Part shown: positions 9,512 to 10,647 of the stretch, piece by piece
How the letters are laid out: the number at the start of each line of letters is the position of its first letter
Numbering within the stretch: position 1 is the stretch's first letter
Source: Escherichia coli
GTDB taxonomy: Bacteria; Pseudomonadota; Gammaproteobacteria; Enterobacterales; Enterobacteriaceae
Assembly: GCF_003334785.1 (NCBI RefSeq)
Contig: NZ_QOWV01000029.1
Length of the DNA: 25,956 nt
Reading direction: 5' to 3' (one strand)
The notes under the pieces: model-generated
What the model saw: the letters and a program-made list of their open reading frames with translations, nothing else
Told to the model about the DNA's origin: nothing
Databases searched by the model: none
Made by a program: the position numbers and the translations under genes

Positions 9512-9670
9512 CTACTGCTCATCAGGAAACAGTTTTTTCAGTTCTTCACCGGAAAGTCCGGTCGCCTCCTGAATCCGTTCCGGCGGCCAGCCCATATCCC
9601 GCAGCCGGCAGGCTATTTCCCGCGCCACTTCAAGAGCGCCTTTTTGAATAAGACGTTCTGCAATCGTCAT
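9512..9670 (-). CDS. Small protein (52 aa) homologous to the C-terminal tail of the adjacent Rpn nuclease (RpnS-like)
   Basis: From MTIAERLIQKG... it aligns with the Rpn tail MTIAERLEQKG...ATGLSDDELKK. Track start at 9733 adds 21 unrelated residues and spans a hairpin; AGGAG lies 13 nt upstream of ATG 9670. Confidence 0.5.
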   Translation of the reverse strand: MTIAERLIQKGALEVAREIACRLRDMGWPPERIQEATGLSGEELKKLFPDEQ

Positions 9671-9691
9671 GCTGTTTGCTCTGCTCCTGCT

Positions 9692-9722
9692 GGCAAAAAA
9701 GCCCGGGATTTTGCCGGGCTTT
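9692..9722 (-). terminator. Hairpin plus U-tract on minus strand between rpn stop and the small tail-like gene (terminator or attenuator)
   Basis: Minus strand AAAGCCCGG-CAAAAT-CCGGGCTTT followed by TTTGCC. Confidence 0.35.
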
Positions 9723-9732
9723 GCGGTTCTCA

Positions 9733-10647
9733 TCAGTGAGTTATTTTCTTCAGTTCGTCATCGGAAAGTCCGGTAGCCTGCTTAATCTGCTCCGGCGTCA
9801 TCCCCATTTTCTGAAGCTGGCACGCAATAGCCAGGGCTTTTTCAAGCGCTCCTTCCATGCGTCCTTCCATCCTGCCTTCCTGGCGACCTTTTTGCTCAAG
9901 ACGTTCTGCGATAGTCATCAGTTTATCCTCATGCTGCGGCAGACGCTCAGCCAGCGCCCGCATAAATTCCGGTGATACAGAGTCCCCTGCGTTAACGATG
10001 TAATGAATCAGAACACGCACCTGCTCGTCTGAAATTTCCACCATGACCTGCGGGAGTTTGTCCAGCAGCTCCATCATGTCACGATGGCGGATATGCTTCA
10101 TCAGCAGCGTCAGTGCGGCCATCCGGCGATGGTTCATGATTTCATTGTCATCAACGACAGTGATATCAACCAGCGGAAACGGCTTTGTGTATATTTTAGC
10201 CGCAAGTGCCGGATTCTCAAAACAGTCCAGCCAGTTCATGCTGTACGGATACGGGCTGCGCTCACCATGATAGAACAGCACCGGAATCACCAGTGGCAAC
10301 GTTTTGTGCTGCTCCAGATGTCTCTGCATCGCCGCCACACTGTAACGTAACATGCGGAAAGGCATGTACAGATTTTCGGTGCTCTGGTGCTCAATGAGCG
10401 TATAAACATAGCCATCTTCACCCCCGGTGGTTTTCACGCTCCAGAGGATATCGCTGGCGTACTGATGCAGGTCCGGCTCAACAAAGGTGGCGGGTTCCAG
10501 CTTCAGCGTGGACAGGTCGCACAACTGCCGGTACTCCGCCGGAAGATGCAGTTCCAGAAAATCTCTGGCGACGTCGGGATTCGCCAGGAACGACCGGAAC
10601 GCGGCATCATGCGGCGTGGGCGTTGTGGTGTTTTTCTTCTTACTCAC
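9733..10647 (-). CDS. Rpn-family recombination-promoting nuclease (YhgA-like PD-(D/E)XK), about 304 aa
   Basis: N-terminal TPHDAAFRSFL...DFLELHLP and overall architecture match my memory of E. coli Rpn/YhgA proteins. Start taken as GTG 10647 with AGGAGG 4 nt upstream. Internal in-frame ATG at 9918 begins the tail (MTIAERLEQ...). Confidence 0.75.
   Translation of the reverse strand: MSKKKNTTTPTPHDAAFRSFLANPDVARDFLELHLPAEYRQLCDLSTLKLEPATFVEPDLHQYASDILWSVKTTGGEDGYVYTLIEHQSTENLYMPFRMLRYSVAAMQRHLEQHKTLPLVIPVLFYHGERSPYPYSMNWLDCFENPALAAKIYTKPFPLVDITVVDDNEIMNHRRMAALTLLMKHIRHRDMMELLDKLPQVMVEISDEQVRVLIHYIVNAGDSVSPEFMRALAERLPQHEDKLMTIAERLEQKGRQEGRMEGRMEGALEKALAIACQLQKMGMTPEQIKQATGLSDDELKKITH

Follow-up and report, generated by a model that had tools for sequence, protein, structure and literature searches.

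Internal initiation was reported to yield a small protein, RpnS, from all five rpn genes of Escherichia coli and from one rpn gene of C. difficile (Zhong et al. 2023, PNAS 120:e2307382120, PMC10400941). In that study, the full-length product, RpnL, was toxic and cleaved DNA when RpnS was absent, and RpnS bound and blocked RpnL in an allele-specific manner. RpnA_S was found to be a dimeric three-helix bundle with strain-variable four-residue repeats in its first helix, and for RpnC one extra repeat in either RpnC_S or RpnC_L abolished inhibition unless it was present on both. The plasmid gene RpnP2 protected against T-even phages, and defense was demonstrated only for this member. Separate downstream genes, termed rpnSs, were also described on chromosomes and plasmids (ypaA, or rpnE_Ss, and rpnC_Ss); RpnSs proteins vary in their repeats, and the YpaA protein was detected experimentally (PMC10400941). 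Both the mechanism and the downstream rpnSs genes are also treated in Koonin's commentary on this paper. The locus described in the present work lies on the minus strand at positions 9512 to 10647 of a 25,956-nt stretch of E. coli DNA (contig NZ_QOWV01000029.1, assembly GCF_003334785.1), hereafter the window, and comprises an rpn gene with an in-frame internal start codon, followed by a small gene for a homologue of the Rpn tail.

Based on the evidence presented below, this locus is very probably an IncI-plasmid member of the published RpnL/RpnS toxin-antitoxin and phage-defense family, accompanied by an rpnSs gene. It has in common with the RpnLS systems (RpnA-E and RpnP2) the PF04754 nuclease domain, the catalytic residues of RpnA, a plasmid location, an in-frame Shine-Dalgarno (SD) sequence and ATG opening a C-terminal three-helix HTH_Rpn_C domain, and strain-variable four-residue repeats in helix 1, and it does not differ from them in kind. 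The IncI1 Rpn of the window may or may not be the same as RpnP2, which comes from ECOR13 and for which the text of the paper gives no accession. With ypaA and rpnC_Ss, the small gene shares its position as a separate small open reading frame (ORF) directly downstream of rpn on the same strand, the MTIAERL start, the homology to the tail, a repeat variation of its own, and the possibility of loss by deletion or fusion. In K-12, YpaA and the RpnE tail are one KLEG repeat apart (61 vs. 57 aa); ypaA itself (L038, 5817-6002) is flagged as a pseudogene by RefSeq in NC_000913.3. An earlier note on this DNA had described Rpn proteins as toxic, phage-defense-associated nucleases blocked by small proteins made from their own tails, which matches PMC10400941 and would apply to the window by homology. 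The architecture that it pointed out (Rpn, internal RpnS and downstream tail gene) was described by Zhong et al. in 2023, and is therefore real yet not new.

The nuclease gene and its internal reading frame

The large gene, known as ygdB in IncI1 plasmids (coordinates of all locus features are given in Table 1), is preceded by the ribosome-binding sequence AGGAGG at 10657-10652, 4 nt ahead of the GTG start. Its product, identical to WP_000038334.1, matched the Pfam family PF04754 (Transposase_31) over residues 11-207 (E 2e-78), and scored 181.9 bits against NCBIfam TIGR01784, the cut-off of which is 52.1. Identity values were 53% to K-12 RpnA and 49% to K-12 RpnE. When aligned with these two proteins, residues D14, D66, E86, Q88 and R98 fell in invariant columns and corresponded to RpnA D11, D63, E82, Q84 and R94, the residues defined by mutation in Kingston 2017, where each mutation inactivated RpnA. 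Judged by these matches, the product is RpnL, a PD-(D/E)XK recombination-promoting nuclease, and is predicted to be a DNA endonuclease. A sequence search of the full protein against the Protein Data Bank (PDB) returned no match, so no structure of the nuclease domain was obtained.

The in-frame ATG that the earlier note had placed at the opening of the Rpn tail was present on the minus strand, with GAGGA 7 nt ahead of it. Approximately 100 loci were collected from plasmid records and assemblies, 95 of which were parsed; the internal GAGGA-N7-ATG was kept throughout the parsed loci, whatever the tail type. The resident tail of the window reads MTIAERLEQKG-(RQEG RMEG RMEG)-ALEKALAIACQLQKMGMTPEQIKQATGLSDDELKKITH and covers positions 219-273 of TIGR01784 (E 1e-9), and PF27070 (HTH_Rpn_C) matches were precomputed on Rpn proteins identical to that of the window. 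By analogy with the published systems, RpnS would be made separately from this ATG. A promoter-like site was also detected inside rpn, the -10 hexamer of which was invariant across the parsed loci, with TTGAGA as -35 hexamer in most of them and TTGAGG in a minority. This site is a candidate internal promoter for a tail transcript; an internal promoter is likewise drawn in rpn genes by Zhong et al. (PMC10400941).

The stand-alone tail gene

The small gene starts 62 nt past the rpn stop on the same strand, with AGGAG at 9688-9684 and a 13-nt spacing to its ATG. Its product, MTIAERLIQKG-ALEVAREIACRLRDMGWPPERIQEATGLSGEELKKLFPDEQ, had been proposed as a paralogue of the Rpn tail, and the alignment bore this out: in BLASTP, 32/59 positions (54%) were identical (E 2e-15), both proteins begin with MTIAERL, and the single 12-aa gap corresponds exactly to the three four-residue repeats of the resident tail. 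The paralogy was also recovered at the DNA level by a blind repeat search (9533-9642 vs. 9745-9854, 75%; 9639-9670 vs. 9887-9918, 84%). Moreover, residues 1-45 matched the sequence of the RpnA_S crystal structure (PDB 7TH0; E 1e-3), and a single-sequence AlphaFold2 (AF2) model was all-helical (predicted local distance difference test, pLDDT, 81.5), with 7TH0 as top Foldseek match, a match weak in absolute terms, as expected at 52 residues. A total of 321 homologues of the small protein were found, mostly 52-89 aa long. Family members carry precomputed PF27070 HTH_Rpn_C matches; a Pfam scan of a 64-aa variant gave nothing significant with a Pfam copy that did not include PF27070. A second type of length variation, which does not follow the four-residue period, was seen further along helix 1 in some alleles (P0001, P0006, P0012, P0112), which have one or two additional copies of a seven-residue unit, EIACRLR.

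The small gene shows purifying selection: among 14 distinct alleles, the ratio of nonsynonymous to synonymous polymorphism (pN/pS) was 0.28, with 6/4/11 variable sites at the three codon positions, and the ORF was unbroken in each parsed locus carrying it, at approximately 10% synonymous divergence. RefSeq (PGAP) annotates a longer gene of 73 aa (WP_001604501.1; 9512-9733, minus strand), whose ATG shares bases with the stop codon of rpn (TGATG), and some records give 52 aa instead. In 16 aligned loci, TGATG was missing in some and the spacer measured 61 or 62 nt, so the reading frame of the 21-residue extension, which crosses the hairpin described below, is not conserved and is lost in about half of the related plasmids. 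The GCCAGCAGGAGCAGAG stretch and the MTIAERL ATG were kept in the same 16 loci. The extension is probably an annotation artifact, and the 52-aa model is the better one.

A hairpin followed by a T-run, also proposed in the earlier note, was confirmed downstream of the rpn stop and ahead of the small gene, with arms AAAGCCCGG (9722-9714) and CCGGGCTTT (9706-9698) and the T6 run at 9700-9695; folded alone, it reached -13.9 kcal/mol. Stem and T-run were kept in 16/16 aligned IncI loci with the small gene, and the hairpin spacer recurs at each junction of the three-cassette arrays described below. A consensus terminator scan did not list this hairpin, which direct folding shows, apparently because the scan extends the stem into the T-run. 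In this respect the IncI locus differs from K-12, where the spacer before ypaA is approximately 12 nt long, with a strong SD and no hairpin, as compared with 62 nt and a conserved terminator-like hairpin in the window. The sole evident route for expression of the small gene would be read-through from rpn or from the promoter-like site at 10220-10193.

Tail types, cassette arrays and crossover junctions

At least three types of resident tail (T1, T2 and T3) were distinguished among the parsed loci, the window carrying T1. Tails of type T1 have 0-5 GRQE/GRME repeats in IncI plasmids, and T2 and T3 have 3-7 repeats of the GIQQ type. The lineage of the small gene (Ss) was recognizably constant, with 0-8 GFDE/GFKE/GFKQ repeats, the window allele being the shortest (0), and the same lineage was found behind T1, T2 and T3 tails. 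This appears to differ from RpnC_Ss and RpnE_Ss, each of which was reported to cluster with its own upstream tail; YpaA is 79% identical to the neighboring RpnE_S tail, as compared with 65% between the small protein of the window and its resident tail.

Once the repeats were stripped, Ss was 65% identical to T1, 55% to T2, 47% to T3 and 47% to RpnA_S, and about 40-47% identical to the tails of K-12 RpnA and RpnE, while mutual identity among T1, T2 and T3 was 61-67%. Ss is therefore nearest to T1, yet no nearer than T1 is to T2 or T3 (61-65%). On these values, the IncI small gene amounts to a fourth tail type rather than a recent copy. The description of the small gene as a duplicated inhibitor module is probably too simple, given the 65% repeat-stripped identity and the 0 vs. 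3 repeats.

In many IncI plasmids (L042, 278-1695; L066-L075), three-cassette arrays were found, in which an Rpn with a T2 or T3 tail is followed by a free 53-aa T1 gene and then by Ss; such arrays set the IncI plasmids apart from the published rpnSs loci. In the assembly collection, the free 53-aa T1 protein was indexed in 1,098 blocks. Conversely, Rpn in one locus (L004) ends in an Ss-type tail to which it is directly fused, and no small gene follows it; a 67-aa database entry (P0008) showed the same junction. The junctions of L042 and L004 are reciprocal chimeras inside a 21-nt box common to both starts (ATGACnATnGCAGAACGTCTT). In the free T1 gene, a T1 body is preceded by upstream sequence and synonymous codons of the Ss type (ACG ATT); in the L004 fusion, an Ss body is preceded by the upstream sequence found inside rpn and by codons of the T1 type (ACT ATC). 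Reciprocal chimeric junctions of this kind are what unequal homologous crossover in the 21-nt box predicts, which provides a concrete mechanism for tail gain, loss and swapping.

This arrangement resembles silent-cassette and shufflon systems, in which a short conserved box heading each alternative C-terminal module permits exchange, stacking and deletion. In contrast to such systems, no dedicated recombinase site was evident here, the junctions resemble ordinary unequal homologous crossover, and the downstream cassette, which starts at an ATG of its own, shows purifying selection at the protein level. The junctions suggest box-mediated cassette exchange, which may extend beyond published work.

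Comparison of repeat numbers between resident tails and small genes

In the window, the small protein has 0 repeats and the resident tail 3. Of 37 distinct two-cassette arrays from the 95 parsed loci, permutation predicted 6.2 with equal numbers and 0 were found (P about 0.001), a statistic that ignores plasmid phylogeny and is based on loci sampled non-randomly from lineages that are not independent. When arrays were collapsed to distinct T1 number pairs, 0/19 were equal against 3.1 expected (P about 0.03). On a constant Rpn protein, resident T1 tails with 2 repeats were accompanied by Ss with 1, 3, 4, 5, 6 or 7, and those with 3 repeats by Ss with 0, 2, 4 or 5, the matching value being skipped in both cases. 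A negative correlation between the two numbers was also observed (Spearman rho about -0.5 in 26 T1 arrays, phylogeny ignored), long resident tails occurring with short Ss and short tails with long Ss.

As BLAST rows give only summed repeat numbers, synthetic probes with matched numbers were run against the approximately 2,030 PLSDB records with the locus. Among the matches listed, a single (3,3) plasmid was found, NZ_CP058672.1 (L077, 1716-2942), the rpn gene of which is frameshifted near codon 20, for which biology and assembly error are both possible explanations. Among the best-ranked matches listed, there was no full-length ungapped (0,0), (1,1), (2,2) or (4,4) match. These results suggest an apparent avoidance of matched repeat numbers, possibly beyond published work. 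A tentative and rather doubtful explanation would be that selection keeps the repeat number of Ss unlike that of the resident tail, as a matched Ss would upset the RpnL/RpnS balance and be purged, or rpn be lost; Ss would then be a reserve specificity cassette or a leading-region inhibitor of foreign Rpn.

Proposed mechanism and alternative explanations

In the mechanism proposed here, RpnL would be a PD-(D/E)XK DNA endonuclease whose last 61 residues would also be made as free RpnS from the ATG at 9918. As the analogy with RpnA, B, C and P2 suggests, free RpnS would use its long first helix to bind the matching domain of RpnL, and the nuclease would stay inactive until infection or stress releases it. 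Unequal homologous crossover in the MTIAERL box would have left the small gene behind as a stand-alone, diverged tail cassette and would keep it open to exchange. With 0 repeats against 3 and about a third of the repeat-stripped positions different, the 52-aa protein most likely inhibits the resident RpnL poorly at best; more probably, the small gene is an alternative tail, and swapping it in would alter the toxin C-terminal domain and the specificity of the intragenic antitoxin together. The free 52-aa protein probably forms dimers of its own.

The foremost alternative is that the small gene is a second cognate antitoxin copy, independently expressed, which would top up the inhibition of RpnL and allow a more flexible regulation. 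The RpnS fold is preserved in full in the small protein, as is the MTIAERL.QKG head, and the gene lies on the same strand as rpn, so that terminator read-through could produce the protein. The repeat numbers argue against this explanation, since they differ in the window (0 vs. 3) and are equal in none of the 37 distinct two-cassette arrays, and a mismatch of one repeat ended inhibition in the case of RpnC (PMC10400941). In addition, repeat-stripped identity is just 65%, and the Ss lineage remains constant while the resident tail switches among T1, T2 and T3. A spare antitoxin is consequently regarded as doubtful, and an orthogonal, exchangeable cassette is favored over it because of the divergence, the 0-vs-3 mismatch, the persistence of Ss under changing tails, and the recombinant junctions.

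Several points weigh against the exchangeable-cassette reading and the family assignment on which it builds. Toxicity, internal initiation, inhibition and defense at the window locus rest on analogy, and neither Rpn nor the small protein was matched by PADLOC v2.0, whose 2023 library predates or omits Rpn. The mismatch rule taken from RpnC may not transfer to the small protein, because the RpnC alleles were otherwise identical, while the Ss paralogue has a different repeat sequence (GFKE vs. GRME), and the sampling and phylogenetic limits of the repeat statistic given above belong here as well. The level of expression of the small gene is uncertain, since a terminator-like hairpin precedes it, with only 24 nt from the T-run to the ATG, a consensus scan detected no promoter belonging to it, and the SD is poorly spaced from the start codon.

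A different role was considered, in which the small gene would be an anti-defense decoy, produced early from the leading region against Rpn proteins of the recipient or of rival plasmids, its hypervariable helix tracking their repeat numbers. Anti-defense genes are enriched in leading regions (Samuel and Burstein 2024, PMC11541004), the small gene lies 2.4-3.5 kb from the origin of transfer (oriT) and nikA in the same orientation as ardA and psiB, and its repeat number, between 0 and 8, varies without regard to the resident tail. Nevertheless, the protein is only about 40-47% identical to the RpnA and RpnE tails of K-12, whereas published inhibition is allele-specific, the gene sits behind a terminator-like hairpin, and no paper tying Rpn or ygdB to plasmid leading regions was found in the literature. 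This role is considered improbable.

It also appears quite improbable that an earlier tail replacement left the small ORF as a relic with no function, comparable to the RefSeq pseudogene ypaA. The gene clearly arises through recombination, ypaA carries its pseudogene flag in NC_000913.3, and the weak SD and the terminator-like hairpin upstream would fit a relic. Against this, the ORF is intact wherever present in the parsed loci despite approximately 10% synonymous divergence, with a pN/pS of 0.28 and a conserved start context, YpaA has been detected as a protein (PMC10400941), and the lack of repeat numbers matching the resident tail would be unexpected for neutral DNA.

Finally, it is extremely unlikely that the large gene is a mobile-element transposase with an incidental small ORF next to it, as the Pfam name and older annotations ("putative transposase", "ygdB: transposase_31") would have it, since no terminal inverted repeats flank the gene, its position is the same in about 2,000 plasmids, and rpn genes are argued not to be conventional transposons both by Zhong et al. 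(PMC10400941) and by Koonin. An insertion sequence (IS)-like structure was accordingly rejected, the block lying at a fixed site between ygdA and ygeA in all loci.

Plasmid context and neighboring features

The 1.6-kb block was found in 2,041 PLSDB plasmids, nearly all of which are conjugative MOBP/MPF_I plasmids (IncI1, I-gamma, K, B/O) from Escherichia, Salmonella and Shigella. In the window, an IncI1-type MOBP relaxase gene, nikB (4110-6809), and nikA (6820-7152) lie approximately 2.4 kb from the Rpn block. R64-like plasmids show the gene order nikA, oriT, yggA, ygfB (DUF4942), ygeA (helix-turn-helix, HTH), small gene, ygdB (rpn), ygdA, ygcA, ardA, psiA, psiB, with rpn in the same orientation as ardA and psiB. 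The location within a leading region, suggested in the earlier note, is consistent with this order and with established IncI1 maps.

Table 1. Features of the rpn locus, with positions in the window.
Feature	Position	Strand	Description
rpn (IncI1 ygdB) coding sequence	9733-10647	minus	GTG start 10647, TGA stop 9735-9733; 304 aa; RpnL
Promoter-like site inside rpn	10193-10220	minus	TTGAGA-16-TAAAAT; 10/12 matches in consensus scan; candidate promoter
Intragenic RpnS frame	9733-9918	minus	In-frame ATG 9918-9916, GAGGA 9930-9926; 61-aa tail
21-nt MTIAERL box at internal start	9898-9918	minus	ATGACTATCGCAGAACGTCTT; common to small gene; putative crossover site
Four-residue repeats RQEG RMEG RMEG	9850-9885	minus	Three 12-nt units; helix 1 of tail
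Hairpin and T6 run	9695-9722	minus	9-bp stem, 7-nt loop; between rpn stop and small gene; terminator-like
rpnSs-type small gene	9512-9670	minus	ATG 9670, stop 9512; 52 aa; zero four-residue repeats
21-nt MTIAERL box of small gene	9650-9670	minus	ATGACGATTGCAGAACGTCTT

Directly past ygdA, at 11121-13134 on the plus strand, a DinI-like gene, umuD and umuC form a mutagenic repair operon of the impCAB type, which in this plasmid stands in place of the R64-like ygcA-ardA segment. On the other side of the locus, the ygeA HTH gene (9230-9481) is directly preceded by two copies of a palindromic motif, AAAGTGAAATTTnTTCACTTT (9126-9162 and 9193-9229), which look like operator sites for the ygeA regulator, a putative assignment. 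The ygeA protein showed just two alleles over all loci, unlike its hypervariable neighbors. Between the DUF4942 gene (7805-8656) and ygeA, approximately 570 bp (8657-9229) contain no convincing gene; a 65-aa ORF is annotated there in other records, and the gap could, from its leading-region position, hold single-strand promoter or initiation signals.

Elsewhere, the window is an IS-rich mosaic, with an IS256-family element (2025-3233), an IS66-family element (23672-25210) and an IS110-like ORF (17612-18985). A 314-aa ORF at 19058-20002 on the minus strand has an N-terminal motif like that of GIY-YIG nucleases (GVYLIV...YVGVS...RRITEH), and is named "hypothetical" in the matching record.

Implications

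About 2,000 sequenced IncI-type resistance plasmids bear this nuclease module, toxic by analogy, near oriT, and databases name its small gene "hypothetical protein", often with the probably wrong 73-aa start. Three observations would bear on the purpose of rpnSs genes and on what drives the repeat variation of the Rpn family: the reciprocal crossover junctions, the arrays of three cassettes, and the apparent avoidance of equal repeat numbers.

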